Shown here one piece after another: positions 866-55,982 of a stretch of DNA of 64,000 nt. The stretch is taken from the sequence record MH494197.1; one strand, given 5' to 3'. How positions within the stretch are numbered: the first letter of the stretch is position 1; the number at the start of each line of letters is the position of its first letter. The notes under the pieces are model-generated. The model was not told the DNA's origin and did not search any database. It saw only the letters and a list, made by a program, of their open reading frames with translations. The position numbers and the translations under genes are program-made. This DNA comes from Escherichia phage CMSTMSU.

Positions 866-2600
866 TTATTTATGATTAAAAGAATCGCCTAAATTATTCG
901 GGTTAAAACCTGCACTTCCTTGTTGTTCTTGGTATTCAGCATCGGCACTTTCTAAGTTACCGTCATCATCAATACCCAAATCCATACCGGGATCGTTAGG
1001 AGCATCTATACCAACAGATTGCAACCCAGCAGCATCTTCTTCACCACTTGACGGAGCGGAACCATCTTGTGGATTTTCTTGGAGCCACATTTGCTCATTC
1101 TTAACAATATCAGCTTTAGAAAGCCCATTTTTCAAGAATAGTTTGTTTTGCCATATATGGCAGATCGTTAAGTGGGAGATAGGTGTTAATTAGTTTAGCA
1201 TCTAGTTCCGCTTTACGATAAGCCAAGTTAATAGGTGGATTCATAATTACTTCAAAAGATGAAGTACTAATGTTATATCCATTTTAACCATAAAACGTTT
1301 AAATTCTGCATCAAATAGTTTTGCAACTAAACGTTGATAACGCATACATTGGTTATTAAAACGTAATTCACTTGCCATTGCTTGTGTTGCACCATCACCA
1401 AATAGTGATACACCACCATCATCTGGACCTTGCGGTAGATATGAAGCTGGGATTTGCAAACCACGAATCAATTTATTGTTGAAGTAACGCAAGTCATCAA
1501 TCTGACCTAAGTTATCACCACCGGAAGTGTTTGTACATCTGAACCACGACCTTCAGAAGTTTGTGGGAAGAAGTAATCTTCTAGAATACTTAATGGATTA
1601 TATGCTGCATCCATTAGAGAAGTACTGCCACCTTTATTTGAAGGAATACGTCTTTGGTGAATTTCATTTTTGAATCGTTCTACGTATGCCATTGCTTGGT
1701 GAGTTTGCATATCACCAACGTCAATTTTAAATACACGACGCTCTGGAGCACGTTGAACACGATAGATAATAATACTATCTTCAAGTAATTCTTTTGTTTA
1801 TAGACTTTGAAAACATCTTCAAGTATACTAGTACCAAAAGGCCAAACTCCATCTTGTCCTGTATTTAGGGTTAGATGAATTACATGTTCTGCACCAACTG
1901 GAATAACATCAAGACGACCGTTAGTACTGAATGGGTCAGCAGAGTTTCCTTGGTTAGTAAAGCCAGATGCACCACCTGCTGCCACTGAACCACCACCACC
2001 TAATGTGGTAGGGATTGCACCGGGTATGCAGTTTTATCAAATCCAACTTGTAAGTTACTAAACACTTTATCTTTAAGATTCAAAGATACGTCACGAATAT
2101 AATAAATTACAGGGTTTTTCCGGTTGCTTCGTTAACGAATACTTGTTCAACGTTTTTGGGCTTACCCAGTACCAGTCAAATGTTTCTGGGTCACGAATGA
2201 AGAATTGGTCACCATATTTTAATAGGCCACGTACAATTTCATACATTCTGGTTTTAAAATCATTTTGTTCAGTCCATGCATCCAAACGGTCTTCAATAGT
2301 AGTTACTTCTGTATCACCAATATCATCTTTATATTTGATTTTATATGGAAGACCAAAATCTTCAGTACTTTGTGTACAGAAGTCAGCAATGATATTAAGT
2401 GCTGTTCTAATTTCAGGATCTTGGTCCATCTGTTCATACTGACTATAACGTTCAGTACGGTTAGCTAAACCATTGTATACTACTGGAAGATAGGAAGCGA
2501 AATTTGTTTTCGTTCCTGTTGATTTGTTGCTATTACTGGACTGATTAGGGACGACCGATAACTTCGATCTCCCCATTGTCATATGTCGTTTCCAACTCAT
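866..2600 (-). CDS. Portal vertex protein (T4 gp20-like), interrupted by several frame breaks
   Basis: ORF fragments 2091..2600, 1680..1985, 1507..1710, 1247..1492, 866..1135 form one reading; segment ...LRFNNQCMRYQRLVAKLFDAEFKRF and ...EDYFFPQTSEGRGSDVQTLP resemble conserved T4 gp20 C-terminal region from memory; acidic C-terminus; SD AAGGACG before ATG at 2600. Confidence 0.8.
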
Positions 2601-2612
2601 TATTGTTCGTCC

Positions 2613-4789
2613 TTAACTGTTTCTCTCACCTTGGGTGTTTTCAGAGATAGTTCTTAGATAATTATTTGTCTGTTGTACAGCAGATAGTGATTGTTCATTA
2701 ACATCGGCAAGCTTTTTGAGTATTTCTTTCATTTCATCAGAAATCGGTGCTGGTGGTCCAGTTCTCGATGTCACTGCACTACCATTATTTATCATCTTCT
2801 TAATTGCCTCTGTATCGTCAGGTTTTGGTGGAACTGGTGGTTCACGGTGCCCATGCAGTTTTATCAAAATCTTTACGAGATACAGTTATTTCTGGAGCAA
2901 CGTTATTGGTTTTCAATAACAGGACGAATACGTTCTACTCGGACGGTTGAATAAACTGTCAGCATAATCAGATGGTAGTGGTTTTGGTTCTTTGTAGTTA
3001 CGTGAGGTGTTCCATTTGTTGAACTTATCCCACATCCCTGCAAAATAATCACTAACACTATTTACACCGTTGTCAATGATGTTGTTTACGCTTTCTGCTG
3101 GGGTTTCAGTACTGTTATTGAGTTTTATATCATTATCAGAACCACCACCGAACCAACTTTTAACAGAATTCCATAGGTTACCGGTAAATCCATTAAGTTA
3201 TTCATAAAGGTATCAAATGCTTCTGACACTTTAGAGTAACCTGAACCGAATATATCTGCACCCAATCCATCCAACCAAGCTGTAAATTCAGCACCAATAC
3301 GATCAAGGTAAGCAATTGCATCTTTAGCAATAGGTACTAACCCAAATCCATCAAGAGCCAATTCCCCAATAAACTCCCATGCACCATCAGTTCTGTCTGC
3401 AATGTCTGAAAGATAATCCACAATTGAATTTTGTGTATTAGCATACATTGTATTAAATGGTTCAGTGAATTCTTTACTAATCCACATATTGAAGCGGTTA
3501 GTAAATTGAGTTAATTTATCAGCGGGATTATTTTTAGGTTCATTTACGGTTGCTTCCATATCCAATAGTTGTTGGTAGAAGGTTGCAGCAGTTGTGTTTC
3601 CTAATTGAATCTGGTTAAGCAAATCTTGCTTAATTAATTCTTTATTCTTTTAACGAATTCTAATTGTTGGCGACGAATTTCTTGTGAATCAGTTACACCA
3701 CTACGTACAAGATTTTCACCTAAATCAGCGAACTGGTTCAGTACTGGAGTGAGTAGGTCATCCGGTACACCACCAATAGACAATCTGTGTGATATCAAAC
3801 GGAGGAAATCTGCACCTGCATCACCCATTGCACCCGCAGCTTCGTTGAACGCCTTAGATGTTGCTACAGCAGCTTTACTGGATAGTCCAGAGTAGTTCTG
3901 CAATGCAATTTGCATAGAACGCGTATCGAGTGATTTATCTAGGTTTTGTGTTTTGTTTAGTAATGCATCAACGGATTCACCCATGCTTTTACTGAATTTA
4001 GTCATGCTCATGATGAATTGTTCAGTACTTTTAGCTTGTCCATACTACGAAGAGCTTCACGACCACCATATTGTTTTGGAACTTAATGTTTCTTGCAGTT
4101 AAATCAGTTAATGTTTTTGAGAAATACCATAAAGGCCAAGTTCATTTTGAGCTTGTTGAACAGTTCCTAATAATTTACCAAAGGTAGCAACACCATCACC
4201 ATATGCCCCATCCAACTGAGCTACTACAGAACTATGTGTTTGTAGAGCTTCACTGAATCATCCATACTCAACATAGATGCACCTGCACCTTTCAGTACTG
4301 AACCATAACCTTCAGCCAATGCAACACCAGCACTGTTAATTCTGGTATATACTTCCAATTGTGCATTAAGTGCGTTATATACAGCAAGACCAGCACCAGT
4401 AACGAGTTTAAATGCTGCTGCCGCTGCACCAATTGGACGGCATCATTGCTAATGAACCAGCAAATGATGATGCACTAACGCCTAATGAGTTTACTACAGT
4501 ACTTACGTTCGTACTGGAGTTCATCATTGTTTTGCTTACATTGGAAACTTCAGAAGATAGTGATTTGAACAATTTACCAAATGCTTTCCCATCATCGGCT
4601 TGTGCACTTCCACGATTACTGGAAGAACTGGAACTGGAACCATTCTTTTTACCATTTGAACCTGATTTTTCTTATCATTCTTTATATTTTCAGCTAATAA
4701 CTCACGGATAGCAGTCAAACTATCATTGTTATCTTTAGTTTGATTAACCAACTGCTGTAGTAGGTAATCACTTGTATTGACAGCCATAA
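2613..4789 (-). CDS. Large Ser/Ala/Gly/Asn-rich virion protein (about 725 codons), heavily frame-broken; function unknown (internal or tape-measure/hub-like is speculation)
   Basis: Fragments 4536..4853, 3634..4011, 3125..3622, 2613..2867 plus sub-60-aa pieces read as one protein when frames are switched; AAAAGGGA SD before ATG at 4789; TAAATA core on minus strand at 4820..4825. Confidence 0.45.
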
Positions 4790-4930
4790 CATTCCCTTTT
4801 AATAGATGTATTATAGAAATATTTATGAATCTATAACGAATAAAAAGACCCATCTATAACATTTGTCCAATTTGTCCCATTTTTGGTAATAAATACTACA
4901 GAGACATTTATTACATGGAGATTTAATAAA

Positions 4931-5787
4931 ATGGCAATGAACCCACTAGCTAAGTATACTAAAATTGAAGAACTTGGTACAAAATTGGTCACAAATGGCG
5001 TGATTCCTTATAAAGAAGGAGTTCTTGGCTCTAAAGGTATCAAATGTGGCATTTGTGCTCGTAGTGCACGCGATGAAATGACACTCAATACACCAGATAT
5101 GCTTCTAAATGGTGATGCAATTGCTCGTGTTATTGAAAACTGCGTACCTAACGTACTTGATGCAGATGAACTTTATGTAAATGACGTAGAGCAACTACTT
5201 ATCGCTATTAAAGTAGCTTCTAAAGAAGAATCATATGATATTAATGTGACATGTCCTGAATGTAACAAAGAAGGCCGTTTTGAGCGTAGCTTATCATATC
5301 TACTAGAAACAGCACAAACTTTCAGTGAAGTTCCTACTGTACAATTGGATAATGGACTAAGTTTAGAGTTTAGACCACTTACTTGGAAGGAATATTCTAA
5401 CTTCGCAGAAAGAATGTTTACAGAACAACAAAAACTAAATTCCTTGAAACTGCCGAAATGGAGCAGGAAGAAAAAGTTAAAGTGTTTGGTGAAGTATTTG
5501 AAAGTATGGCACAACTCAACTTTGATATGATCGCAGGAGTTATTGCTAAAGTAATTACTCCTGAAGGTGATGAAGTAACTGAAAACGAATTCATTGCTGA
5601 ATGGCTAGGTCAGCAGTCCAAAGGAACACTTAAAATAATTCGTGAAAAAATGGATGAAGTACTTGAAATTGGTGTTTCCCATACTATGGAAGTTGAATGC
5701 AGTGACTGTAATCATCAATGGGAAATTAATGGACTGAAATATGACCCAAGTCATTTTTCGCATAATGCTTCTCCACTCATCTCCTGA
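4931..5787 (+). CDS. Zinc-ribbon protein with three CxxC pairs (CGIC, CPEC, CSDC); likely virion/baseplate-associated
   Basis: ORFs 4883..5530 and 5458..5787 overlap in different frames (one frame break); GGAG SD upstream of ATG 4931; TAAATA core at 4890..4895. Confidence 0.5.
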
Positions 5788-6716: not shown

Positions 6717-6802
6717 TGATAAAAATTTATAAAAAGTACATAATTCTTGAACATTGAAGTAACGCATAAATATTTTGATAAGAATTAGTTTAGTGGGGAT
6801 TT

Positions 6803-9459: not shown

Positions 9460-10485
9460 TTATAGTGATCTGTAAATTTGGATTAGAAGATTTTTATCGA
9501 ACATAGGTGAATCAATTTCCATGATTTGTTGTAACACAATCTCATCAACTGACTCAGTACTTTCAAAGCTTTCACCATCTTCAATAAGTTCTTTGATACT
9601 TTGCTTGCTAGTAACAACGTTAAACTCACGAATGTTATAAAGTTTAGTAAAAGTATCACGAATAAAACTAATCTCATCAGTAGTGATAGCAATATCAACT
9701 TGAACCTTTGAAATAGTATTGTCTTGAAGATAATAACTTGGATCTGTTAATAGTTCTGAAAGTGTAAATGTTCTATATTTTGGTGCTTCTGACCAAGAAT
9801 GGAAAGTTGGTTCTTTACCATGTTCTAAAATCATCACACCTCTTGCATCATCCCATGTATCAGAAAAGTTATGTGGAAACAGTTACCTGTGTAAATTACA
9901 CGAGTTCCTTTGGATGTTGTTTTGCTTGTCTCTTGTGGAAATGCCCACTAAAAACATACTCACAACCACCAAAAGAACCTTCAGTCTCTTTACCATGATC
10001 TGGCATCTCAACCATTTTATTGAGCAAGTAGCGTAACTCTAAGTGACCAAAACATACTTACTTTTAAGTTGAGGTAGAACTTTGTATTCATCTTCAATCA
10101 TAAATGGAATGAAAGTACAATCATCAAATGTTGTGATTTCATTAATGAACTCGATGTTCTCATAAACTTGTGCCATATTAATACTAGTAATGTCACGTTT
10201 ATTTTTATGATACATGTCATGGTTCCCAACTAAGAAGTAAACCTTATCAAAGTTGTCATTTAGTAATTGTAGAATTTGTAAACCATAGTTTAATGTTTGA
10301 ATGTTAATATTACTGCGGTTATGGAAGTAATCTCCCATAAACACGCATACAGTAATACCATTTTTCTTAGCAAGTTCAATCATAAACTTGATGAAGTTCA
10401 AACAATCTTCGTTGTGCTGCTTGCTGTTATTCTTTAATCCTAAATGAATATCAGTAAATGTAATTGCTTTATCAAATAGAGCCAT
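9460..10485 (-). CDS. Recombination nuclease subunit, SbcD/Mre11-like phosphoesterase (T4 gp47-like), frame-broken
   Basis: Calcineurin-like motifs DIHLG, GDYFH, GNHD in ORF 10039..10503; C-terminal part in ORF 9460..9837. Confidence 0.85.
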
Positions 10486-10509
10486 CTTCGTTTTTCCTTT
10501 CAATCATGT

Positions 10510-11283
10510 TCATTTCAATTTCGATTTGACGAGTGTGTGATGGTGTAAAACCATGCATCTCAAGTAAATCGTCTCGATGTTACGAACATTTTTCTCACTA
10601 TTAAGAATCGAACGGAAACTATTGTTAACGAACGAAGTATAGTAAGAGAAAGGATTCAACTGTACTGCTGGTTTATCTTTTTGTAAAGAATACTCTCTTT
10701 AAAGAGAAGTGCGTTTTAACTAATTGTATTCTGGCATCACCCATCATTTCATCCAAATATGTATAGTTTCTATAGTTGGATTTGTGTGAGATTTCCTCTG
10801 CCAGTTTAATGAACATTTTACCTAGTTCATTAGTGATTTTACCATGAACAGTGCTGAATTCTCCGTCTTCAAGATCACCTTTCCAGTGAGAACGAACGAC
10901 TTCGTACAGAATACCTTCTTCATCTACAATGTAATGTTTGAATGGTTCAAAATTAACTCTTGTATCTGCTGGGATATGTTCATCGGTAATTACACGAATA
11001 ACCACCTCATCGATAGGTACATCAGTCAGTACTAAATTGTGCTCATCTGCGTATTCCTTCGCTTTCTTCGCACTCATACCTTCTTTTCACGAATTGCATC
11101 AAGCATTTCATTGTTGAGACGTTTAATACGTGCTGCTTTAGCTTTATCTAAAAGTTCTGCTGTGATTTCGGATTCATCAAAACGATATAATCGTACATAC
11201 TGTAGCACTTATCAAGTAACCAGCAATATGAGATTTTACTTTTTGTATCTCACGAAGTAAATCAGCATTGTTAAGATACTTTT
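10510..11283 (-). CDS. gp55-like sigma factor for late transcription, frame-broken; N-terminal extent uncertain
   Basis: ELGKMFIKLAEEISHKSNYRNYTYLDEMMGDA and PFSYYTSFVNNSFRSILNSEKNV match my recollection of T4 gp55 conserved blocks; GGAGAG SD before ATG 11283. Confidence 0.5.
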
Positions 11284-11391
11284 ACGCTTCGGCCTATTTG
11301 TCATTATTTCAACTCTCCATGTTTTAAATCCAATAGGTACATTCCTTGTACCATCAATGTTATTATAGCACCAAAACGTCTTTGTCCCACG

Positions 11392-11399
11392 TATAAATA
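11392..11399 (+). promoter_or_regulatory. T4-type late promoter TATAAATA
   Basis: Exact TATAAATA about 35 nt upstream of first structural ORF on + strand. Confidence 0.55.
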
Positions 11400-11432
11400 C
11401 ATCAAATGTTCCTTCTTATGGAGAATCAAAAG

Positions 11433-16620: not shown

Positions 16621-17393
16621 CCGGATTATTTTATGCATCACAGACTGGCACAGGTTCTGAAGCGGGAAATAAAACATTAATTGCAGGACAAGCAACGAAC
16701 CAAGCAGCACCGAAAGCTGTTGTTCAACCTTCTGTTGATAGTGATGAATTAGTTGTCACAACTAAAATTAAAACTATCGGTACTGGGTATTCTCAACGTG
16801 GTTCTCGTCATGTCCCTCGTCGTAGAAGAACACAACGTTCAGGTGGTACTCCAGTACCTACGGCACAAGAATCATACAATGTGGGTAATGTTGATAAGAC
16901 TGCAATTGATTGGAAAGTTGTTCCGGGTGATTCACAATTTATTTCTGAATTGAAAGAATATGAAGGAACAATGGCGTATCAACAAGCTAAAGGATATTAC
17001 CGCAATGGTAAATTTTGGAGATATTTGGATAGTCGTGGATTCCCAACTATTGGTTACGGTCACTTGATTGTTAGTGGTGAAAACTTCTCTGGTGGGATTA
17101 CCGAACAGGAAGCCAATGATATGTTGGTGCGTGATAGTAGTAAGGCTATATATGACGCAAAATCCATTTACGCTTCTTATAAGATGAAAACACCTTACAT
17201 GGCACAACAAGTTCTATGTCAAATGGTATTCCAGATGGGTAAAGGTGGTGTAATGAAATTTAAGTCAATGCTATCTGAAATGGCAAAAGGTAACTACAAG
17301 CAAGCTGCTGCTCAAATTCGAAATTCAGCTTGGTATCGTCAAACTACACGCCGTGCTGAATTAATGGCACGTAGATTAGAGGCATGTCAATAA
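16605..17393 (+). CDS. T4-lysozyme-family (GH24) muramidase domain with about 100-aa N-terminal extension; likely virion-associated lysin
   Basis: EYEGT...YLDSRGFPTIGYGHL...QMVFQMGKGGVMKFKSMLSEMAKGNY...NSAWYRQTTRRAE matches T4 lysozyme catalytic E/D/T and C-terminal helices. Confidence 0.8.
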   Translation, partial: LVVLLTGLFYASQTGTGSEAGNKTLIAGQATNQAAPKAVVQPSVDSDELVVTTKIKTIGTGYSQRGSRHVPRRRRTQRSGGTPVPTAQESYNVGNVDKTAIDWKVVPGDSQFISELKEYEGTMAYQQAKGYYRNGKFWRYLDSRGFPTIGYGHLIVSGENFSGGITEQEANDMLVRDSSKAIYDAKSIYASYKMKTPYMAQQVLCQMVFQMGKGGVMKFKSMLSEMAKGNYKQAAAQIRNSAWYRQTTRRAELMARRLEACQ

Positions 17394-17405
17394 ATATTTC
17401 AGTAC

Positions 17406-17413
17406 TATAAATA
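17406..17413 (+). promoter_or_regulatory. T4-type late promoter TATAAATA
   Basis: Exact TATAAATA 18 nt upstream of ATG 17431 with GAGGAAA SD between. Confidence 0.55.
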
Positions 17414-18326: not shown

Positions 18327-18356
18327 AAAAGCACTCTTCGGGTGCTTTTCTTTTGG
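18327..18356 (+). terminator. Rho-independent terminator
   Basis: AGCAC-TCTTCGG-GTGCT hairpin followed by TTTTCTTTT. Confidence 0.55.
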
Positions 18357-18421
18357 ATAAATATTTCTATATATAATTCCCAGTACTGAACTAGTACTTT
18401 ACTGATTTAAAGGAATAAATT

Positions 18422-21905: not shown

Positions 21906-21938
21906 ATCATAAATAAATCAAATGAATGAACGAATTAT

Positions 21939-34282: not shown

Positions 34283-34325
34283 CAAGGTAAATAAAGATAT
34301 ACCCGATTTATTTTGGAGACAAACA

Positions 34326-37624: not shown

Positions 37625-37650
37625 AAAAAGGAGCCAATGGCTCCTTTTTC
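37625..37650. terminator. Bidirectional rho-independent terminator
   Basis: AAAAAGGAGCC-AAT-GGCTCCTTTTT between convergent genes. Confidence 0.65.
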
Positions 37651-37651
37651 T

Positions 37652-38745: not shown

Positions 38746-38757
38746 ATCATCACCTTA

Positions 38758-39363: not shown

Positions 39364-39408
39364 TTTCTAATCCTTAGTAGTTAATTAAAATTTGTTCTAA
39401 CTTACCAG

Positions 39409-39870: not shown

Positions 39871-39979
39871 TGTTAAGCCCTTTTAGTAGTGAACTTTCAT
39901 TTATTTATTAATGGCAACGAAATGTATTTTGTACTGATAAATATTGGTATATGACATTAACTCATACAAGGGAAATATT

Positions 39980-41105: not shown

Positions 41106-41116
41106 AGAGGGTTGAT

Positions 41117-43207: not shown

Positions 43208-43262
43208 TGAAAGCTGCTCAACCAATAACATATATCACCCTATCTTAAAGGAGATTATAAAA

Positions 43263-44157
43263 ATGGCAGTTTTTCTAATTTAGAAGGAACCATGAAGAAG
43301 ACCTTCATACTTGGTAAAAATGGTGCACAAATTGCCACTAATGGTAATGTTGTTCAAATCCAGAACTACACGGGTACACAACTTCTTCCTGTTTCAGCAG
43401 GTGACCCAACCGCAAATACACACTTGGTTACATTGGGTTATTTGAATACACATAGCGGTGGTGGTGGCGGTTCCGGTATTTTACGTGGAACTATTGCACC
43501 ATCTGAATCAATCGGTGTAGATGGTGACGCTTACTTCTTAGTTGACAGTACTAATATTATTCAGATCTATATTAAAGACCTTGGTGTTTGGAAGCCTCTC
43601 CAAAGCACAACTCCGTACTGATAGTTCTTACGTTACTACTGAAATCGTTCCTGTATCGGCATTTACATTAGTTCACGGAACAACAGATCAATATACTTAT
43701 TCTTTACCTGAATCAGTACATGGTCGTGGTCCAGATATTATGGTTCAGCTACAGGGTGATCCCGGTAACATCCCACTTGACACTGTATTCCAAACTAACG
43801 TCACTGTGAGTGGTATTGGTGACATTACGATTGATGTTATTGGTCAAATTACTGAATACACAAGTGTCAAAGTCAACATCATAGGAGCAACAACAATGAC
43901 AGTACCTTATAGTAAATTAATTAATATAGCAGATTGGGTAGCATCTGGTGATGATTACACCATTACTGTTCCAGCGTCAGAACATAACCAAACACCTGAC
44001 AATTTGTATATTTCTATATATTCAAATAAAACACCGCAGTACAGCAGCATCACCATTTGAACTGGTAATAACCGAAACTCAAATTGATGCAAGTGGTAAT
44101 GTTACATTCACTTCTGATGAAGCGTTTAGTGGTAAAATAGTAATTTCCGGTAAATAA
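43263..44157 (+). CDS. Second fiber protein sharing the MAVFSNLEGTM N-terminus, divergent C-terminal part
   Basis: ORFs 43292..43621, 43542..44060, 43948..44157 chain by frame switches; leader nearly identical to 41103..41152. Confidence 0.5.
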
Positions 44158-44164
44158 AAAATAA

Positions 44165-44196
44165 TCCAGACTGCGTTCCATCGAGTCTGGATTTTT
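44165..44196 (+). terminator. Rho-independent terminator
   Basis: ATCCAGACT-loop-AGTCTGGAT hairpin followed by TTTTTAT. Confidence 0.6.
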
Positions 44197-44271
44197 ATAT
44201 TAATAACTAAATATATGTATATTAACAAGGTCAAATGTATTTTATGCTTTTGCCTATTTGGAGGGAACTAA

Positions 44272-47200
44272 ATGTACTCGATTAAAACAGATCTAGATAT
44301 AACTGGTGGTGCAACGGTTGGTAAAGATCTTCTTGTGAAAGGCGATGCAGTATTCAATAAAAATCTAACAGTTAATGGAACTGTAACTTTTGCTGACGCT
44401 GTATTCACTGCAATTGAAGCAGGAACTGTAGACATTTCATCTACACTAGATGTTGCTGGTAAAGCATCATTGAATGGTGGAATTGAAGTTCATGGTAATT
44501 CCGTAATTGGTAATTTGCCTGTTGGCTCTGATACTGCAACGATTAATTCTAATGCACAATTCCAAAGCCCAGTATCAATGGCAGGTAACCTAACACAAAC
44601 CGCTGGCACTGCTGTACTAAAAGATACCCAAGTGGCATCAATGGATGTTCTTGGAACTTCTTCATTTAAAGGTAATATTACTGCTGAAACTGGCACTACC
44701 GCAGCATTTGACAAAATAACTGCAACTGATGCAACATTCACAAACACTGCAACTACTGATATCACATCAACTGGAACTGCAAACTTTAAAGATGTGAATA
44801 TTTCCGGTACACTAGGTGGAACATTTAGTCTATCTGATGTTAATGCAACAACTCTAACTGTTTCTGGTTTAACCAGTCTACAAGGTGGTGTTACATTAGG
44901 TTCCAACATTACTGGTGTGAATAGTAGTGCAAACTTCCGTGATATTAAAATTGGTTCCAATGCTGCAAACACTAACTACCGTTTGAGCTTTAACTATTCT
45001 GCTCCAAGTCTTCGCCCAACTGTAATTCTACAGAACGAAATCCAATCAGAATTGATGTCTCCAGCTACCCTAAGTGTATTGAAAACTGCATCTTTTGGTG
45101 ATTCGTCATTATCCACTTTTGGTATTACTGGTAATGGTCTAAACAAACTAGATTACCTAACAGTATCTGGTAACTCTGTTCAAGATCCAGCAACTCCACT
45201 ATTACAAGTAACTTCAGGTAAAACTAAAGTTCATGATTTCGAAGTAACAGGAACTGCAACTATTCCTAACATTGAAAGTACTGGTACTGCTAATTTTAAT
45301 AACATCAACGTATCTGGTACACTCGGCGGTACTTTCAGTCTTGATGATATTGAAGCAAACACTCTAACTGTTTCTGGATTAACTAGCCTTGTTGGTGGTG
45401 TAACTTTAGGTGCTGATATTTCCGGTGCTAATAGTACTGCTAATTTTAAAGCAGTAAGTTTAGGACAAAACGCAGCCGATGCTAACGTTAAGTATGGTTT
45501 TGCTTATTCTGCCCGGTGCTCGTCCAACTGTAATTCTACAAAATGAAATTCAGTCTGAACTAGTATCTCCAGCAGTACTAAATGTACAAAAACTGCTACC
45601 TTTGGTGATGCATCTCTTGCAACCTATGGTATCACAGGTAACGGTCTAAACAAACTAGATTATCTATCTATTACTGGTAATGGTACACAAAGTCCAGCTA
45701 CCCCACAACTACAAGTAGCTGGTAAATCAGTACTAAATGATGTTGAATTCACTGGTACTGTAACTGGTCTAACTGTTGATGTGAGTGGACAAGATCTAAC
45801 TCCTAAATCAGTAGTTGCTGCTGAAGCAATCAAAGGTCAAACCCTTGAATCAGTTGGTCAAACCACCGTAGGAACTAACCTACAAGTTGGTGGAACTGCT
45901 AATGTTGTTGGTGCACTAACTGGTACTGCTGCTACCTTCACTGGTGATGTAAGTGCTGCTAAAGGTACTTTCAGTGGTGATGTTAGCGTTACTGGTCAAA
46001 CTGTAACTGTACGTGATTTAGTAGTAACTGGTACAACTACTGGTGTAACTGCCCAAGCTGATGTTGATGGTCTTGATATCGCCCCAAATAAAGTTGATGT
46101 TACAACAACACTATCTGTTGCTGGGGACACTACTTTAGCTGGCCTAACTGCTAGTTCAGTAACCAGTACTGGTGATGTTACTGGTGCGTCTGTATCTGGT
46201 AATACAGTAACTGCGGCTGGTGCACTATCTGGTGGTTCTCTTGCAGTAACTGGTGCTGGTTCTATGGCTTCACTAACTGTTCCAAGTATTACTGGTGACA
46301 CTACTTTTGCTAATAACGTAACTATTACTGGAACACTAACTCCGAGTAGTATAGATTTAAGCACTACTGATGTAAGTGCTGCTTCTTTAACAACTACTGG
46401 TAACGTAACTGTTGGTGGTTCTCTTGCAGTAACTGGTGCTATTGATTTGTCTGCTGCTGATGTAGTAACAAAATCAGTTAGTGCAACTAACCCAAGTACA
46501 TTTGGTGTAATTAATGCATCTTCTGTTGTCGCAACTGGTGACGTTTCAGGTGGCACTCTAACTACTACTGGTGCAGCGAAAGTAGGAACACTAACTAGTA
46601 CTGGTGTAGTATCTGGTTCGCGTTTGTCTTCTGGTACTGCAACAATCTCAACTTCTGTAACAGTTCCAACTTTACAAGCTGAAGCTGCTGGTGCTGGTAC
46701 ACTAAATCTAGCAAGTAATGTTGTCGCGGCAAAGATCTAACTGTCACTGGTGTATTCAAACCTGAAGGTGGTCTTGACCTAACAACTGTTGATATTACTG
46801 CAAACTCACTAACTACTACTGCTGATGTTAATGTTGGTGGAAACTTAGTAGTTGATGGTACTTTTGACCTAAGTGCTGCTGATGTGTCTGTGAAATCTCT
46901 TGCAAGTGCAGAGACAATTACAAGTGCTGGTGTTATTACCGTTACCGATTCAACCAATACTAGTTCGTTACCTAAAATTACTTCAACTGATGCAACACTC
47001 TTTACAGTAAATGCAGGTACTATTAATGCAACTGGCAACAGTGTACTACAAAGTGTATCAGCTACTCAAGTAACTGCAACTAGTGCTGAATTGACTGGTG
47101 TTGGTCTTGGTCTTCAAGTCGATAATGATGCAAACGTTGGTGGTGCATTATCTGTTGGTGGAATCGCAACTGTTGGTTCTTTAACAACAACTGCTGCTTC

Positions 47201-49201
47201 TCTTAATATTGCAAAAATACTGCAATCACTGGTGATTTAGCTGTATCTGGCACACTAACTGCTGGTTCAATCGACCTAAGCAATACTGATGTAACCGTTA
47301 AATCTCTTGATTCACTAGGTAACGCACACATTGCTGGTGACCTAACTGTAGATGGTGCATTCGACTTAAGTGCAACTAACCTTGTAGCTGCAAGTCTAGC
47401 AAGTACTGGTTCTACTACTGTTGGAACTGATCTAGTACTAACAACTGGTGTTGTGACTGGTAGCCCAGCTATCTCTGGTAATACAACAATCGGTGGAACT
47501 CTTGGTGTAACTGGTGCTGTTAACCTAACTGATATTGTTAATATCGGTAAGAAAGTAACAGTGAGTACTGGTGGTATTCAGGTAGTTGATGGTGGTATCA
47601 ATACTAACACAATTAACGTTTCTGGTGCTTCTACTCTAGCAGGAACTTCCATTACTGGAACTTTAGGTGTAACTGGTGCTTCTACTCTAGCAGGTGTATC
47701 TGCGACATCACTAACAGTTTCTGGTGACAGTACTGTTCAGAAACTAACTGTCCAAGGTGAATTGATCCCACAAGGTGGTCTTGACCTAAGCGGTGCAGAC
47801 ATTACTGCTAATAGTCTAACTACTGCAACAACTATCAATGCAACTGGCCTAAGTACTCTAAGTGGTGGTGTTAGTACTTCTACTGTGACTGCATCTGGTC
47901 TAGCAACTGTTGGAAGTTTAACTTCTACTGCAAACGCATCAGTTGGTGGCAATTTGGGTGTAACTGGAACTCTAGATGTTACTGGTGCTACTACTGTATC
48001 TTCACTAACAGCTACTGGTGCAGTGAAAACTGGCACAACCCTAACTGTTGGTACTCCAGTTGGTGAACAACCTGAAACTGTACAGATCATTCCAGATACT
48101 TATATTGCTGGTAAATTGCGTGTAATCGGCGGTATTAACGCTGAAATCGACGTAAGTGGTCAAACACTAGAACCATATGCAATTGAAGCTGCTGCAACAC
48201 TATCTGCTGTTGGTAACATTACTTCTGGTGCAACCATCGTTTCTAAAGCTGCAACAATTGGTGATGTTGGTTCACAAAACAACAACCTAACTGTTAATGG
48301 TAACGTAGTAACTAATGGTGACTTCACCGTTACTGGTGTACTAAATGCACAATTGAACCAAGCAGATTCCGATGTAGCTGTTAAATCTTTAACTGCAACT
48401 AATAACGTTGCGGCTGGTACTTCAATCACTGCTGGAACATCCATCACTGCATCAGGCTTACTAAAAGGTAATTCGTTAGAAGTCACCACTACTGGTTCAT
48501 TTGGTGGTGCAGTAACTATGTCAAGTGGTGCAAACATCACTGGTACTGTTGGTATCACTGCTGGTGACCTAACAGTAGGTGGTAATATCTCTGCAACTGG
48601 GACTGCTGGATTCGGTGCAACAACCGTTTCTACCATTACAACATCAGGTTTAGCTACACTTGCAAGTGCATCTGTAACTGGTGCTCTAACTGTAGGTGGT
48701 ACATTAACTGCAAATGGTAACACTGTGATTGGTGATGCTGCTGCTGATACTTTAACTGTAAATGCAACATCGACATTTAAAGAGAACGCAACATTTGATA
48801 AGAACCTAACAGTGACTGGTTCTATTAACACCACCACTGCAAACTTCACCACAAACAACATGGTAACTAAGAAATATTCTGTTATCCCTGCTAGTGTTAC
48901 TGCTTCTACTGCTGCTGTAGGTGGTACTTGGACACCAGATGGTACTACTAACGTATATCGCTTAACTCTTGACCAAAGTGTTACAATGGATTCCATCGCG
49001 GGTCTAATTGGTAGTGGTCAAGCATGTTCAGTGTATATCTATGTAACTCCATCTGTTGCTGATACTACTTTCACCTTCGGTGGTGCATACTCTGTAGTTT
49101 CTGGTACAGTAAGTGCTGTAGTTGGTCAAACAAGTATTATCCAAGTAATCTATGATGGTTTCAGTACTGTGTTTGATACCTTCGTTGCACAACGTGTATA
49201 A
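44272..49201 (+). CDS. Giant repetitive fiber protein A (about 1640 codons), Thr/Gly/Val/Ala/Ser-rich, frame-broken
   Basis: ORFs 44272..45546, 45781..46740, 46884..47240, 47453..49201 chain; GGAGGGA SD; starts MYSIKTDLD; ends ...VIYDGFSTVFDTFVAQRV. Confidence 0.6.
45781..46140 (+). repeat. Segment of fiber A nearly identical at nucleotide level to 50701..51130 in fiber B
   Basis: GTGAGTGGACAAGATCTAACTCCTAAATCAGTAGTTGCTGCTGAAGCAATCAAAGGTCAAAC... present in both genes. Confidence 0.7.
48040..49201 (+). repeat. C-terminal module of fiber A, paralogous to 53860..55050 of fiber B
   Basis: Long near-identical runs, e.g. CCTGAAACTGTACAGAT...TTCACAAAACAACAACCTAA...CATCACTGGTAC. Confidence 0.65.
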
Positions 49202-49220: not shown

Positions 49221-49250
49221 AAGCCAACTAAAATAGTTGGCTTTTTCTTT
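49221..49250 (+). terminator. Rho-independent terminator
   Basis: AAGCCAACTA-AAAT-AGTTGGCTT followed by TTTTCTTT. Confidence 0.65.
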
Positions 49251-49347
49251 GTATTAGATAATAGTGTTTTGTGAATTAAACTAAATATAAGTATATTAAC
49301 AAAAGATGGGTTATGAATATATAGTTCATCGTTATAGGAGGGACTCT

Positions 49348-52300
49348 ATGTACTCGATTAAAACGGATCTTGATGTATCTGGTAATTCCACGGTAGGTAA
49401 GGATCTTTTGGTCAAAGGTAATGCAGTATTCAGTAATGACCTAACGGTTAATGGGGAAGTGTCTTTTGCTAACGCAGTATTCACTGCAATTACCGCTGGT
49501 TCTGTGAATGTCACAGGTGCATTGGATGTTGCTGGTAAGGCAACCTTATCCGGTGGTGCTGATGTTTCAGGTGCTGCGACATTTGCAGGAAACATTACTG
49601 CTGCTGACGGCACAACTGCAAAATTTGATAACTTAGAAGCTAATTCAGGATCATTTAATTCTGTTGAATCAACTGATATTACTTCAACTGGCACAGCAAC
49701 TTTTAAAGATGTAAACATTTCTGGTACACTTGGTGGTACTTTTAATCTTTCTGATATTAATGCTACAACACTTAATGTGTCTGGTGCTTCAGCACTAACT
49801 GGTTCAGTCACATTGGGTGCAAATATCACTGGTCTTGCAAGTACTGCAAACTTCCGTGATATTCGTATCGGGCCTAATGAAGAAGGTCAAGCATATAGAC
49901 TAAACTTTGGTTACACCGTTCGGACAACGACCAACCGTTCTTCTACAGAACGAAGTTCAATCCGAACTAATGTCTCCTGCTAAGTTGAATGTTCTACAAA
50001 CTGCAACATTTGGTGATTCTTCACTTTCAACTTACGGTATTACAGGTAATGGTTTAAACAAATTAGATTATGTAACTATTTCTGGTAACGCAATTCAATC
50101 ACCAACCACTCCTTTACTTGAAGTAACTAAAGGTAAAACTAAAGTTGTTGATTTAGAAGTGACTGGCGTAGCAACTATTCCTAATATCGAAAGTTCTGGT
50201 ACTGCAAACTTTAACAACATCAACGTATCTGGTACTATTGGTGGTAGTTTTGATTTAGATGATATCCAAGCAACAACATTATCAGTATCCGGTGCTTCAG
50301 CACTAACTGGTGCAGTTACATTGGGTGCAAACATCACTGGTCTAGCAAGTACTGCAACATTCAAAGCAATCAATTTGGGTCAAAATACCGCTGATGCTAA
50401 CGTTAAGCTAGGTTTTGCATATACTGCACCTAGTGCACGTCCAACAGTCTTGTTAGCAAACGAAGTTCAATCTGAACTAATGTCTCCTGCTAAGTTGAAC
50501 GTTCTACAAACTGCAACCTTCGGTTCTGCTGCACTATCTACCTATGGTATTACTGGTAATGGTCTAAACAAATTAGATTATCTAACAATTACTGGTAACG
50601 CAACACAAAACCCTGCTACTCCACAACTTCAAGTTGGTGGTAAAGCAATTCTTAATGATGTTGAATTTACAGGTACTGTAACTGGCCTAACTGTTGATGT
50701 GAGTGGACAAGATCTAACTCCTAAATCAGTAGTTGCTGCTGAAGCAATCAAAGGTCAAACTCTTGAATCAGTTGGTCAAACAACTGTAGGTTCATCTCTA
50801 CAAGTTGGTGGTACTGCAACTGTTACTGGTGCATTATCTGCTGCCGCTGGTACTTTCAGTGGTGATGTTAGTGGTTCTAAAGGTATCTTCAGTGATAGCG
50901 TATCCGGTACAAGTGCAACCTTTACTGGGGATGTTAGCGGTGATAACGCAACCTTTAGTGGCGATTTATCTGCTGTAGCTGGCACTTTCAGTGGTGATGT
51001 AACCGTAACTGGTCAAACAATCACTGTTAAAGACTTGGTAGTAACTGGAACTTCAACTGGTGTAACTGCAATCGCTGACGTTGACGGTCTTGATATTGCT
51101 CCAAACAAAGTTGATGTTACAACAACTCTATCTGTTGCTGGTGAATCAACTCTTGCTGGTGTTACAGCAACTTCAATCAATAGTACTGGTGCAATTGCAG
51201 GTACTGCAATTTCTGGCTCTACTATTACAGCAACTGGTGAAATTTCTGGTGCATCATCTGTAGTAACTGGTCTTTCTAAATCTGGTAGCGTTGAAACTGG
51301 TGCTCTAAAGGCATCTTCTGTTGAAACTGCAATCATTAGCAACACTGCTGGTGTGTCAATAACAAACAACACTTCAATTGCAGGTAATCTATCTGTAACT
51401 GGAACTGTTACCCCGTGCAATTGACCTAAGTACTACTGATATTGATGCTAAGTCTCTAACAACTACTGAAGGTGCTAACATTGGTGGTGACCTAGTTGTT
51501 GCAGGTACAGTTGATCTAAGTGCTGCTGACGTTGCTGTTAAATCTCTAACCAGTACTGGTGCAGTTATTAGTTCTGAAGGTACAGTAAGTAGTGTTCTAC
51601 CTAAACTTTCCAGTACTGAAGCTAATATTACCACAGTAACTGCAACCACTGCAAATGCTACCACACTAAATGTAACTGGTACATCAACTCTAGCTGGTGT
51701 TAACGCTTCTGGTGCTATTACTTCTGCAACTAACATTACCGCTACTGGTGTATTAAAGGTGCATCTGTTGAAACTGCGTCAATCAGCAATGCTGATGGTG
51801 TAGCAATTAACAATAACACTACAATCACTGGTAATTTGGACGTATCTGGGACATTGACCCGTGCAATTGACCTAAGTACTACTGATATTAGTTCTAAGTC
51901 TCTAACCACAACTGAAGGTGCTACAATTGGTGGCGATCTTGTGGTAGCAGGTACTGTTGATCTAAGTGCTGCTGATGTGTCGGTGAAATCTCTTGCAAGT
52001 GCAGAGACAATTACAAGTGCTGGTGTTATTACAGTTTCGGATACAGTGAATTCTAGCACTCTACCAAAACTAATTACTACTGATGCAACTATTGGTGCTG
52101 TCCATGCAGCTACTATTGAAACAACTGGTTCAAGTACACTAAAACAAGTATCTGCTACTGAAGTAACAGCTACAAGTATTGTACTAAATTCAGTTGGTGA
52201 AGGTTTACGTGTTGACAATAATGCAAACATTAATGGTATATTAAGTGTTAATAATATTACTTCTACCAATGATACTATTGCAATTGCGAAAAGTGCTGCT

Positions 52301-55050
52301 ATTACTGGTGATCTGACCGTATCTGGAACTGTTACCCCGGTGCAATTGACCTAAGTACTACCGATATTAGTTCTAAATCCTAAGTACTACTGAAGGTGCT
52401 ACAATTGGTGGTGACCTAGTTGTTAATGGTTCAATTGATTTAAGTTCTTCCAATGTTTCAGCAATTACCCTTGCTAGTTCTGGTAATACTACCGTTGGTG
52501 GTAACCTAGTACTAACAACTGGTGTTGTGACTGGCAGCCCATCTGTATCTGGTAACCTTTCAGTTGCAGGTACTGCGGCAGTAACTGGTGCAACTACCTA
52601 ACTGATATCGTAAATATCGGTAAGAAAGTAACTGTAAGCACTGGTGGTATTCAAGTAGTTGCAGGTGGTATTAATACCGACGCTATATTAGTATCCGGTG
52701 ATACAACTTTAAACAACACTACTGTAAACACTACCTTAAATGTAACTGGTCAAAGTACAGTTGCTGCACTAAGTGCTGCATCTTTGAATGTATCTGGTGA
52801 TAGTACTGTTCAAAACTAACAGTTGAAGGTGAATTGGTTCCACAAGGTGGTATCGACCTAACTGGTGCAGATATTTCTGCTAATAGTCTTGCAACTGCTT
52901 CAACAATCACTGCAACTGGACTAAGCACACTAAGTGGTGGTGTAAGTACTACTAATGTTACTGCATCTGGTACAGTGAATGCTGGTAGTTTGGATGTTAC
53001 TAACAACGCAACCGTTGGTGGTAATTTGGGTGTAACTGGTTCATTAACTTCTGGACCATTGAGTGTAACAGGCATTGCGAATATTACTGGTGTAACAACT
53101 GTTGGTTCATTGGTTTCCGGTGCTGTATCTGGTAGTACTGGTACATTTAGTTCAACATTAGGTGTAACTGGTGCAGCTACATTTGACAATGACGTAACTG
53201 TTGAAGGTGTATTCACCCCAGCAGGTGGTTTAGACCTAACAACTTCTGATATTACAGCTAAGAGTTTGTCAGTATCTGAAACTATTCACTCTGATGGTGC
53301 AGCTTCCTTTGGTGGTAACACAACAGTAGGTGGTACATTGGGTGTAACTGGTGCAGTAACTGCTCCATCGGCAACCCTAAGCGGTACTGGTACTGCACTA
53401 GCAGTAACTAATAATGCAACTATTGGTGGTACATTGGGTGTAACTGGTCAAGCAACACTTGGTTCTATAGTAACTTCTGGTGTATCTGCAACAAGTGGCT
53501 CTTTCAGTACTACTCTTGGCGTTACTGGTGCTGCGACATTTGGAAACGATGTAACTGTAGTTGGAACACTAACTCCGGTAGCTTAGATCTAACTGGTGCA
53601 GATATCTCTGCTAAAACACTAACTCTATCTGAAACATTAAATGCGACAGGTAATACTACCCTTGGTGGAACATTAGGTGTAACTGGTTTAGCAACAATTG
53701 GTGGAACACTAACGTCTGGTGCAGTAACTGCTCCATCTGCAACCTTGAATGGTTCAGGAACTGGTCTAGCAGTAACTAACAACGCAACCGTTGGTGGTAC
53801 ATTAGGTGTAGTTGGTCAAACAACACTAGGTTCTGTTAAAACTGGTGCAACTCTAACAGTTGGTACACCATTAGGTGAGCAGCCTGAAACTGTACAGATT
53901 ATGCCAGACACTTATATTGCTGGTAAACTACGTGTTGAGGGTGGTATTAACGCAGATATCGATGTTGGTGGACAAACACTAGAACCGTTTGCAGTAATAG
54001 CATCTGATTCTTTATCTTCTGCTGGTAATATTACTGCTGGTGCGGCAATTATTTCAAGTTCTGCAACAATTGGTGAAGTCGGTTCACAAAACAACAACCT
54101 AATCGTTAATGGTAACGTTGTAAACAACGGTAACTTCACTGTTACTGGTGTACTAAATGCACAATTGAACCAAGCAGATTCCGATGTAGCTGTTAAGTCT
54201 TTGACTGCAACTAACAACGTAGCTGCTGGAACCACATTAAGTGCAGGTACTGCAATTACTGCTGGTACTTCCATCACTGCAACTGGATTACTTAAAGGTA
54301 ATACTTTATTACTACTACTGGTTCATTTGGTGGTGCAGTAACTATGTCAAGTGGTGCAAACATCACTGGTACAGTGGGTATTACTGCTGGTAACCTAACA
54401 GTGGGTGGTGATATCTCTGCAACTGGCACTGCTGGATTCGGTGCAACAACCGTTTCTACAATTACAACATCAGGTTTGGCTACACTTGCAAGTACATCCG
54501 TTACTGGTAACGCAACAGTAGGTGGAACACTAGCAGTAACAGGAGCACTAACTGCGAATGGTAACGTAACATTAGGTGACGCAGCGGCTGACGTTCTAAC
54601 CGTTAATGCAACTTCATCATTTAAAGAAAATGCTGTGTTTGATAAGGCAGTAACAGTAACTGGTGAACTAACCACTACTAATGCTAACTTAACTACTACA
54701 ACAGTAACTACCAAAAGTATGATGTAATCCCAACTCAAGTTACATCATCAGTAATTGCTCCAACCGGAACATGGACTCCAGATGGTACAAGTAACGTGTA
54801 CTTCATCACTCTAGACCAAGATACCACGTTGGCTCCAATTACTGGCCTAATTGGTGGCGGTAAAGCTGCATCAGTATACATCTATGTTAAACAAGATACA
54901 ACTGGTAACAGAAACTTTACAACTGATGGTACTTATGCTGTTGTTGATGGTGAACTAAACAAAACTGCTGGTAGCGTGACCATTTACCAAGTAATTTATG
55001 ATGGTGTAAGTCCAGTTACTGATTTGTTCATTGCACAACGTACTGCTTAA
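49348..55050 (+). CDS. Giant repetitive fiber protein B (about 1900 codons), paralog of fiber A, frame-broken
   Basis: ORFs 49306..49983, 49907..51424, 51836..52354, 52834..53586, 53745..54341, 54344..54727, 54796..55050 chain; AGGAGGGA SD; starts MYSIKTDLD; ends ...VIYDGVSPVTDLFIAQRTA. Confidence 0.6.
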
Positions 55051-55114: not shown

Positions 55115-55891
55115 ATGTTTACATATGTAAAAGGTAGTTCTAAAGAAAATTATGAATTGGGTAACATCATCTCCAACCCAGTTGGTGTTAAGGGTTTAAA
55201 AGAACGCCGGGCAACTCCAGATGATGAACAAACATATCGTTATTTGTACAGTGATATTCGTGCACTTTATGGTATTTCAAGTAAAGATGGTTCTGAAATT
55301 GAACCTAATAACGCTGTTCGCAAAGAAGAGGGTTTCTGGTGGTTGGAATATAAGAATGTTGGTAATGTGAACGCAATTAATGAGAATTTGGAATATATTA
55401 AACTACAAGATAGTAATCAACCAGTCATCACATTCTTAGAAGAAGCAGAAGGTGAATATAAAGAGTTAACAGTACTGAAAACTTATAATTATGTTGATAT
55501 GGACATTGCAGCAGTTAAATCTGATCTGAAAGCACGCACAGTATCATCTCGTAGTGATCGTATTAATGCTGGTTATATGTTTAACGGTCATCGTTATAGT
55601 ACTGATCTAGCTGGTCGTCAAATGCTTCTTAATTATTATACACAAGTAACTTCCGGTTCAGATAGCGTTTCGATTTTCCTTGATGACGCAATTGTAAAAC
55701 TATCTGCTGCTGAAATGACTCAACTATACACTGAAGCATTTGCTATGGTTGAATCCCTATTTGCAGAGTGTAATAAGCAATGTGCTGACATTGATGCAGT
55801 TCCTGATGCTGATGAAGATGCAATTTATAAAGCACAACAGGCGGCTGTATGGGTATATGAAGGTATTGATATTCCTGAGCGTACTCGTTAA
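55115..55891 (+). CDS. Hypothetical protein, 258 aa, intact; possible fiber assembly/accessory protein by position
   Basis: Uninterrupted ORF between fiber genes; functional call is positional only. Confidence 0.5.
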   Translation: MFTYVKGSSKENYELGNIISNPVGVKGLKERRATPDDEQTYRYLYSDIRALYGISSKDGSEIEPNNAVRKEEGFWWLEYKNVGNVNAINENLEYIKLQDSNQPVITFLEEAEGEYKELTVLKTYNYVDMDIAAVKSDLKARTVSSRSDRINAGYMFNGHRYSTDLAGRQMLLNYYTQVTSGSDSVSIFLDDAIVKLSAAEMTQLYTEAFAMVESLFAECNKQCADIDAVPDADEDAIYKAQQAAVWVYEGIDIPERTR

Positions 55892-55904
55892 TTTATATTT
55901 TTTT

Positions 55905-55935
55905 AAAGGTCAACTATGGTTGGCCTTTTCTTTTA
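55905..55935 (+). terminator. Rho-independent terminator
   Basis: AAAGGTCAAC-TATG-GTTGGCCTTT then TTCTTTT. Confidence 0.5.
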
Positions 55936-55982
55936 TCTAAAATAAATACTTAATATATAATCTATTCTGAGGAAATATTTAA

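Follow-up and report, generated by a model that had tools for sequence, protein, structure and literature searches.

In phage T4, late promoters consist of the octamer TATAAATA at positions -13 to -6 and are served by the sigma factor gp55 together with gp33 and the gp45 sliding clamp, the latter two being needed for strong late transcription. Of 50 T4 sites collected in the literature, 32 are perfect octamers and nine are A(-13) variants (PMC2988020). Position -13 is poorly conserved in most T4-like phages, with (A/T)ATAAATA used in RB49, KVP40, and S-PM2 and CTAAATA in the Aeromonas phage Aeh1 (Nolan et al. 2006, PMC1524935; Geiduschek and Kassavetis 2010, PMC2988020). In phage CBB, MEME located ATAAATA at 35 places before structural genes, and the likeness to TATAAATA was noted (Buttimer et al. 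2017, PMC5259590); the same motif is ascribed to phage GAP32 (Abbasifar et al. 2014, as cited in PMC5259590). An RNA-seq paper on phage PA5oct reports only TATAATA/TTGAC promoters. This study concerns the hexamer TAAATA in a 64-kb stretch of DNA from Escherichia phage CMSTMSU (sequence record MH494197.1), referred to as the window, and the gp55-type sigma factor encoded there as its presumed reader.

TAAATA is very probably the -10-like element, at positions -11 to -6, of late promoters read by this phage-encoded sigma factor. An initial annotation of the sequence had proposed that the late-promoter core is relaxed to TAAATA rather than strict TATAAATA. This proposal finds in silico support, in that every computational test points to the hexamer, rather than the T4 octamer, as the unit that is conserved and under selection. 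The window shares with CBB and GAP32 membership in the RaK2-like group, a motif before structural genes, and an AT-rich downstream segment, and with CBB also orthologous sites. The CBB motif is a 7-mer MEME consensus from another genus, whereas A at -12 is absent here at 4 of 16 window sites and at about half of the sites in the close relative WPEC3. The finding is real but mostly expected, extending the published predictions (ATAAATA in CBB and GAP32, a degenerate -13) to another genus. What is new is that A(-12) is a preference and not a requirement, that the hexamer is strict, counter-selected elsewhere, and conserved across genera, and that the sigma factor is a gp55 relative.

Source Sequence and Reference Genome

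The window derives from a RaK2-like (Asteriusvirus-type) jumbo myophage of E. coli and comprises the portal, baseplate, and tail and tail-fibre block as well as a gene annotated as a late-transcription sigma factor. Escherichia phages WPEC3, EC.P1, fEgEco12, and BF17 are 98-99% identical to the window over its whole length (98.8% for WPEC3). PBECO4, 121Q, and G17 show ~84% identity, and the phages CBB, GAP32, Yen9-04, Munch, and RaK2, which belong to other genera, show 67-76% identity in conserved genes.

Compared to WPEC3, the window carries 230 deletions and 10 insertions; 163 of the deletions fall inside homopolymer runs and many others at CCWGG sites, a pattern that uncorrected nanopore-type basecalling typically leaves on Dcm-methylated DNA. 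WPEC3 has a gene with a Dcm methyltransferase annotation. As a result of the frameshifts, window reading frames are fragmented: the portal gene appears as five open reading frames, the sigma gene is spread across three frames, and most long genes are frameshifted. Gene-level statistics were therefore obtained from the whole WPEC3 genome, with the second copy of the terminal repeat dropped, and coordinates were mapped back to the window. An array of RCC1-like paralogues containing 12 ATTAAATA sites was left out of the statistics because its sites are copies of a single event. The T4 genome was put through the identical pipeline as a control.

TAAATA Is Rare, Strict, and Concentrated Upstream of Genes

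In the window, TAAATA occurs 36 times, as against 88 occurrences expected from dinucleotide shuffling and a median of 80 for the other 14 hexamers of A4T2 composition. Sixteen of these copies lie 17-64 nt before a same-strand start codon in the transferred gene map, a promoter position that makes up 2.2% of strand-specific sequence space (binomial p = 1e-17). WPEC3 contains 185 copies, compared to 482-694 for each other A4T2 hexamer, so that the word is depleted about threefold genome-wide relative to words of equal composition (0.33 of the control median). In T4, too, no word of this composition is rarer than TAAATA (0.57 of the control median), and avoidance is stronger in the present genome.

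The copies that remain are strongly biased in position and orientation. Unbiased k-mer enrichment, with WPEC3 as a stand-in, ranks TAAATA among the Shine-Dalgarno words upstream of genes. It is the top hexamer not of Shine-Dalgarno type, preceding 80 WPEC3 genes where 14.7 are expected, and the first of all 4096 hexamers by the share of its copies located 10-100 nt upstream in sense orientation (37% compared to a 7.4% baseline). Upstream copies show a sense-to-antisense ratio of 68:15 and are most frequent 20-50 nt before the start codon. All 18 single-substitution variants of TAAATA behave like background, with no such enrichment or depletion, which indicates that the six bases are strict.

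The full octamer is a minor form by comparison. As initially annotated, exact TATAAATA occurs in the 64 kb only at 11392-11399 and 17406-17413, both on the plus strand and both preceding gene starts, where shuffling would predict 6.7 copies. The 16 window sites comprise two copies of TATAAATA, four each of AATAAATA and CATAAATA, two of GATAAATA, three of ACTAAATA, and one of GGTAAATA. With TATAAATA at 2/16 window sites and at 8 of ~70 WPEC3 upstream sites, the eight-base T4 consensus does not hold here. The octamer accounts for 11-12% of sites, in contrast to 44% of T4 sites in the same pipeline (23/52) and 64% in the T4 literature.

TAAATA is present at all nine other places listed in that annotation, although the positions required some correction. 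The entries 867-872 (minus), 4820-4825 (minus), and 4890-4895 (plus) are exact; 21911, 34290, and 39940 are displaced by 1-2 nt from sites at 21910, 34288, and 39938, and 44216, 49273, and 55925 by 8-18 nt from sites at 44208, 49282, and 55943. The list was also incomplete, lacking equivalent sites at 522 (-), 6767 (+), 18358 (+), and 39902 (-), as well as a second TAAATA at 17391 (+), 17 nt upstream of the TATAAATA copy at 17406.

Conservation separates the hexamer from its flanks. TAAATA still precedes the orthologous structural genes of G17 and CBB (12 gene pairs) and the hub and wedge genes of PBECO4, A4, Yen9-04, Munch, and RaK2, and all orthologous CBB sites that were compared carry it. 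The flanks, including -12 and -13, drift at orthologous sites, with changes such as ACTAAATA to TATAAATA in CBB, GGTAAATA to AATAAATA, and CATAAATA to TATAAATA in G17 or to ATTAAATA in CBB. By several independent measures, the pattern is beyond chance.

The sites precede genes for the capsid, prohead protease, portal operon, baseplate, sheath, tube, adaptor, and fibre proteins and are sparse among the ~250 small early genes. The hexamers at 18358, 21910, 44208, and 55943 start 8-11 nt past intrinsic-terminator hairpins, and a further hairpin lies ~30 nt upstream of the hexamer at 49282 (region ~49225-49287). The order of terminator followed by hexamer, which is conserved in G17 and CBB (with ARNOLD terminators in the G17 record), suggests that each late transcription unit is insulated from the preceding one. 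Two back-to-back divergent pairs, 4820/4890 and 39902/39938, with hexamers ~65 and ~31 nt apart, are both conserved in CBB. The location of sites before virion genes on either strand, without a -35 element, is common to T4 and this phage.

Position -12 and the Predicted Region of Initiation

The extent of the relaxation is apparent from a sequence logo of 70 aligned upstream sites in WPEC3. Position -13 carries no information (A25 C11 G14 T20), and position -12 shows a weak preference (A34 C15 G13 T8; 0.19 bit). Nothing upstream of -12 is informative, every position from -33 to -13 being at or below 0.16 bit, which indicates that a -35 element is absent. Downstream, purines peak exactly 6 nt past the hexamer (A42 and G15 of 70 sites genome-wide; 15/16 in the window), in agreement with the -13 to -6 geometry of T4 promoters, so that the TAAATA core and its predicted distance to the start are the same in both systems.

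Despite the low information content, -12 is not free. Measured against the 7.4% baseline, upstream copies account for 34/48 of the hexamers preceded by A (p = 6e-28), 15/35 of those preceded by C (p = 8.5e-9), and 13/30 of those preceded by G (p = 7e-8), CTAAATA and GTAAATA each being enriched about sixfold, compared to 8/54 of those preceded by T (p = 0.04). In the window, ATAAATA is used at 12/16 sites and CTAAATA or GTAAATA at the remaining four; T at -12 is found at 0/16 copies in promoter position compared to 10/20 other copies. Across the genome, each of the four NTAAATA words is depleted, with counts at 0.27-0.39 of the control median. At -12, A is thus the favoured base, C and G are acceptable, and T is disfavoured. 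The motif is genuinely shorter than that of T4 on its 5' side, and its six-base core is as strict as in T4, or stricter.

T4 and its relatives differ from this phage in the same position. The T4 pipeline yields enrichment only for (T/A)ATAAATA, with none for C at -12 (2/31) and little for G (7/51), which indicates that the test can discriminate. The distant T4-like phages resemble the present case in a degenerate -13, a changeable -12, and a fixed TAAATA, with a diverged gp55 accompanying a diverged consensus. However, each of those phages fixes a single base at -12 (A, or C in Aeh1), whereas A, C, and G coexist here in one genome. The similarity to poxvirus late promoters, which contain a TAAAT initiator, is one of letters only, as these are used by an unrelated machinery, a viral multisubunit polymerase, and the initiator is located at the start site itself.

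A TATA(A/T)T-like sequence follows many hexamers by a few bases. It was considered as a second promoter box, but the aligned logo contains only the start-site purine and A/T richness in this segment, which was consequently treated as the initiation region. A separate case is the RCC1-like array, located outside the window (WPEC3 27280-46430, L003), in which 12 tandem genes annotated as "regulator of chromosome condensation" each follow a near-identical GATTAAATATAGTATAATGAATA, with T at -12 and the hexamer 25-26 nt before the start codon. This element is either a late promoter with the disfavoured T or a member of another promoter class.

A gp55-Type Sigma Factor with a Distinct Domain Architecture

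The presumed reader is encoded beside the sites. Searches of Pfam, NCBIfam, and the PDB with the sigma protein sequence gave no useful match. At the level of profiles, it matches phrog_234, the family of T4 gp55, at 1.5e-16 (gp55 itself, 2.9e-69), and gp55 in turn matches the family of this sigma factor, phrog_12791, at 4.8e-7. An hhalign comparison of a 41-member family alignment with gp55 yielded 91.6% probability (E = 8e-7), with residues 140-240 corresponding to gp55 residues 21-114, and in a fold comparison the region-2-like fold matches the solved gp55 structure. Its relationship to gp55 is confirmed by structure, and its domain architecture differs from that of gp55.

Pockets formed by N13, L54, R57, F86, H95, Y97, and T99 of gp55 receive the flipped bases A(-12), A(-9), and A(-8) in the T4 open complex (PMC7892883). 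The hhalign register places F86, Y97, and T99 opposite identical residues of the sigma factor (F203, Y223, and T225), which are invariant in the family, and L54 and R57 opposite the conservative replacements I173 and K176. As judged from this alignment, the pocket residues would be compatible with the same reading mechanism and with a -12 pocket of altered selectivity.

Two features set the protein apart from T4 gp55. Residues 1-139 form a conserved, family-specific alpha/beta domain for which no structural match was found in the PDB, and the LDFL-type clamp-binding tail is missing. In the window clade, the C-terminus (..IERKNEDGSI) lacks the hydrophobic clamp-binding epitope of the T4 protein (..LDFLYEAND), and the E. 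coli, Klebsiella, and CBB clade of the family is without an acidic clamp-type tail. More distant homologues (P0096, P0097, P0099, P0101, P0108, and P0111) have acidic tails with IFDF, MFDW, or LFPF motifs, which resemble the LDFL clamp-binding epitope of T4 gp55 and gp33.

The clamp partners themselves were likewise not apparent. Queries with T4 gp55, gp33, gp45, DsbA, and gp62 returned no hits in WPEC3 by phmmer and tblastn, pairwise searches by which absence is not provable; the same type of search detected the gp44 clamp loader at 1.3e-22. Three genes beside the clamp loader, considered as clamp candidates, have no Pfam match, and none of them belongs to the gp45 family phrog_223. The CBB paper found no gp33 homologue (PMC5259590), and the RaK2 paper no gp45 or gp62 homologue, whereas gp33 orthologues are described for "group 2" jumbo phages generally (Iyer et al.).

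A Model for Late Transcription and Its Alternatives

A model can be based on the observed word statistics, the position and orientation bias, the cross-genus conservation, and the fold and profile homology of the sigma factor. A sigma-70-type promoter would drive the gp55-type sigma gene (10472-11303, minus strand), whose product would displace host sigma on E. coli core RNA polymerase and read TAAATA without a -35 element. Transcripts would start probably at the purine 6 nt downstream of the hexamer, yielding 5' leaders of ~10-60 nt that carry the ribosome-binding site of the virion structural genes, and specificity would be kept through the purging of TAAATA from the rest of the genome. The reading of TAAATA by this sigma factor, late firing, and the exact start site are what we infer from this arrangement, and the term late promoter is used here in that predictive sense.

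A narrower reading, in which the functional promoter is the published 7-mer ATAAATA (PMC5259590) and the C and G sites at 34288, 44208, 49282, and 522 are non-functional or very weak, is unlikely; the core would then not be relaxed to six bases. In its favour, A is the commonest base at -12 (34/70 sites; 12/16 in the window), ATAAATA has the highest upstream fraction among the four NTAAATA words (35/48 copies), the C and G sites of the window carry A in CBB, and the tyrosine on which A(-12) stacks in the T4 pocket, Y97, is conserved in the sigma factor here. Yet CTAAATA and GTAAATA are themselves enriched upstream, as described above, and are depleted as strongly as ATAAATA (0.34 and 0.30 compared to 0.27 of the control median). 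Moreover, the C and G sites read the same in G17 as in the window, and no other candidate promoter precedes the two tail-fibre genes and CDS392. It is less probable still, and by a clear step, that TAAATA is a real transcription signal with a different reader, either host sigma-70, for which it would be a weak -10 element, or a second phage sigma. The hexamer does look like an AT-rich -10 element, the phage encodes a FliA-annotated protein with sigma-70 regions 2 and 3, and TATA(A/T)T-like sequences follow many hexamers. Against such a reader, no -35-like information exists upstream of the hexamer, a separate TTGACA/TATAAT class precedes non-structural genes, and a sigma-70 scan of the baseplate region predicted 30 promoters compared to 25 expected, which is no excess. 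The promoters known to depend on gp55 in T4-like phages furthermore have TAAATA as their conserved core (PMC1524935), and a sigma factor of gp55 fold is encoded beside the sites.

The invariably sense orientation of the hexamer and its location within ~65 nt of the start codon could also reflect a processing or translation signal in the leader RNA. Primer-extension 5' ends cannot tell initiation from processing, a caution raised for T4 itself (PMC2988020). This explanation is nevertheless highly improbable: the hexamer lies at a variable distance (17 to 64 nt) from the ribosome-binding site and start codon, five sites lie directly past intrinsic terminators, where a continued upstream transcript is not expected, the divergent pairs fit promoters, and TAAATA is avoided in coding DNA irrespective of strand, as would fit a signal at the DNA level. 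Least tenable of all is the view that base composition produces the pattern, through AT-rich intergenic DNA, stop codons, and terminator tails. Intergenic DNA is indeed 67% A+T, and the hexamer at 17391 overlaps a TAA stop codon, but the tests that were run reject this explanation, since the 14 hexamers of equal composition are neither depleted nor concentrated upstream of genes, the orientation bias and binomial statistic are pronounced, and TAAATA persists across genera as its flanks diverge.

Several observations weigh against the assignment of TAAATA as a late promoter element read by the gp55-type sigma factor. Recognition of the hexamer by this protein would follow by analogy with T4, and for the RaK2-like group the literature searched contained no transcript 5' ends or expression timing. 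In the putative recognition pockets, H95 of the T4 -9 pocket is replaced by F, and N13 falls outside the aligned region. The failure of pairwise searches to find gp33 and gp45 suggests that the activation step may differ from that in T4. Gene starts were assigned by a heuristic of our own and are approximate, matching 34/42 annotated genes in the window region exactly. Finally, the portal gene and CDS404 are structural genes without a hexamer within 100 nt; both are presumably co-transcribed with the upstream gene. The 3' part of the 2.2-kb structural gene contains a copy of GATAAATA at 2786-2791 (-), in sense orientation and 185 nt before the portal start; from this internal position it could act as a promoter for the portal gene, which otherwise lacks a hexamer.

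A further-reaching proposal is tentative and on balance doubtful. RaK2-like phages might carry out late transcription from a bare six-base promoter without the clamp-coupled activation of T4, the sigma factor having gained an N-terminal domain of ~139 residues and lost its clamp-binding tail, with specificity secured by removal of TAAATA from the other 360 kb of the genome, more thoroughly than in T4.

In practical terms, the results provide an annotation rule for late units in RaK2-, 121Q-, and PBECO4-type jumbo phages, many of which are currently being sequenced with therapy in view: the hexamer TAAATA should lie 20-60 nt ahead of a start codon and have a base other than T before it. More generally, they show how short a promoter can get in a genome that is itself free of decoys. 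The differences from T4, namely a relaxed -12, another sigma architecture, and no visible clamp partners, lead to testable predictions regarding the specificity of the -12 pocket and the replication dependence of late transcription.

Predicted Promoters and Neighbouring Features

The 16 predicted late promoters of the window are listed in Table 1 together with the sigma genes, promoters of the sigma-70-like class, and a repeated promoter block.

Table 1. Predicted promoters and related features. Positions refer to the window unless WPEC3 is named; the last column gives the corresponding octamer or conservation in relatives.
Feature	Position	Strand	Context	Relatives
Predicted late promoter, ACTAAATA	522..527	-	43 nt before structural-protein homologue of WPEC3 CDS371	G17 ACTAAATA, CBB TATAAATA
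Predicted late promoter, CATAAATA	867..872	-	64 nt before small hypothetical gene 577-802	G17 and CBB CATAAATA
Predicted late promoter, CATAAATA	4820..4825	-	32 nt before 2.2-kb virion structural gene (start ~4787), portal gene next	G17 CATAAATA, CBB AATAAATA
Predicted late promoter, AATAAATA	4890..4895	+	35 nt before hub-like gene (start ~4931)	G17 and CBB TATAAATA
Predicted late promoter, CATAAATA	6767..6772	+	30 nt before gp49-like endonuclease VII gene	G17 TATAAATA, CBB ATTAAATA
Predicted late promoter, within TATAAATA (11392-11399)	11394..11399	+	33 nt before first baseplate-operon gene; points away from sigma gene	G17 and CBB TATAAATA
Predicted late promoter, AATAAATA, upstream one of tandem pair	17391..17396	+	34 nt before small hub/lysozyme gene	
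Predicted late promoter, within TATAAATA (17406-17413), downstream one of tandem pair	17408..17413	+	17 nt before small hub/lysozyme gene	
Predicted late promoter, GATAAATA	18358..18363	+	directly past terminator hairpin 18327-18349; 58 nt before large baseplate wedge gene	
Predicted late promoter, CATAAATA	21910..21915	+	past terminator hairpin 21879-21900; 35 nt before 10-kb virion structural gene	G17 and CBB CATAAATA
Predicted late promoter, GGTAAATA, G at -12	34288..34293	+	31 nt before virion structural gene CDS392	G17 GGTAAATA, CBB AATAAATA
Predicted late promoter, AATAAATA	39902..39907	-	31 nt before structural-gene operon starting 39870	G17 AATAAATA, CBB TATAAATA
Predicted late promoter, GATAAATA	39938..39943	+	36 nt before tail-protein operon	G17 and CBB GATAAATA
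Predicted late promoter, ACTAAATA, C at -12	44208..44213	+	past terminator hairpin 44163-44196; 58 nt before tail-fibre gene 1	G17 ACTAAATA, CBB AATAAATA
Predicted late promoter, ACTAAATA, C at -12	49282..49287	+	60 nt before tail-fibre gene 2	
Predicted late promoter, AATAAATA	55943..55948	+	past terminator hairpin 55905-55934; 34 nt before structural gene CDS405	G17 and CBB AATAAATA
24-nt promoter block, AACTAAATATATGTATATTAACAA	44205-44228		tail-fibre gene 1	
24-nt promoter block, AACTAAATATAAGTATATTAACAA	49279-49302		tail-fibre gene 2	
gp55-type late sigma gene	10472..11303	-	279 aa in relatives (G17 and own call); several frameshifting single-base deletions in window	
Second phage sigma gene, annotated FliA	WPEC3 73048-74013		sigma-70 regions 2 and 3	
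Sigma-70-like promoter, GGGACA-N15-TATAAT, TG before -10	11362..11388	-	before late-sigma gene	equivalent in G17 and CBB
Sigma-70-like promoter, TG-extended TATAAT	34255-34282	-	before ClpA-like protease gene	conserved in G17 and CBB
Sigma-70-like promoter, TG-extended TATAAT	63329-63351	-	before ATPase gene	conserved in G17

The tandem pair before the small hub/lysozyme gene illustrates how individual sites are kept or lost. The TAA of the hexamer at 17391 is the stop codon of the large hub gene, and this hexamer is kept in the seven phages where the large hub gene precedes (the window phage, WPEC3, PBECO4, A4, CBB, Yen9-04, and Munch). In RaK2, where the large hub gene does not precede, a single TAAATA occurs at a different relative position. 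The hexamer at 17408 is present in PBECO4, in A4 (as AATAAATA), and in Munch (as ACTAAATA) and has been lost in CBB and Yen9-04. At the wedge-gene site (18358), TAAATATTTCTATAT is conserved in PBECO4, A4, CBB, Yen9-04, and Munch.

The adjacent paralogous tail-fibre genes, 44272-49201 and 49348-55050, share a 24-nt promoter block, AACTAAATATA[T/A]GTATATTAACAA. G17 has a single fibre gene at this locus.

A second class of promoters is evident before non-late genes. Those that were checked, encoding the late sigma, the ClpA-like protease, and the ATPase, have TGnTATAAT promoters and no TAAATA of their own, and two of the three promoters carry a TTGACA or GGGACA -35 element. A divergent RpoD-like promoter before the late-sigma orthologue was also described in CBB (PMC5259590). 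Upstream of WPEC3 genes, TTGACA (60 sense to 12 antisense copies) and TATAAT (137 to 51) are likewise concentrated, which marks them as a separate sigma-70-type promoter class located mostly before small early genes. Their presence at the late-sigma gene is consistent with a cascade, the late sigma being produced from a promoter class that acts earlier.

Hexamer sites also help to correct over-extended gene starts in public annotations, as exemplified by two WPEC3 coding sequences. The annotated start of CDS374 (L001 2633-5038; window ~2613-4992) is ~200 nt too far upstream, so that the gene as annotated covers a predicted late promoter and overlaps the divergent gene. That of CDS382 (L001 10548-11486; window ~10472-11402) is ~100 nt too far upstream, covering its own sigma-70-like promoter and the neighbouring predicted late promoter. 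The shorter forms of both genes are backed by the G17 annotation and by ribosome-binding sites.

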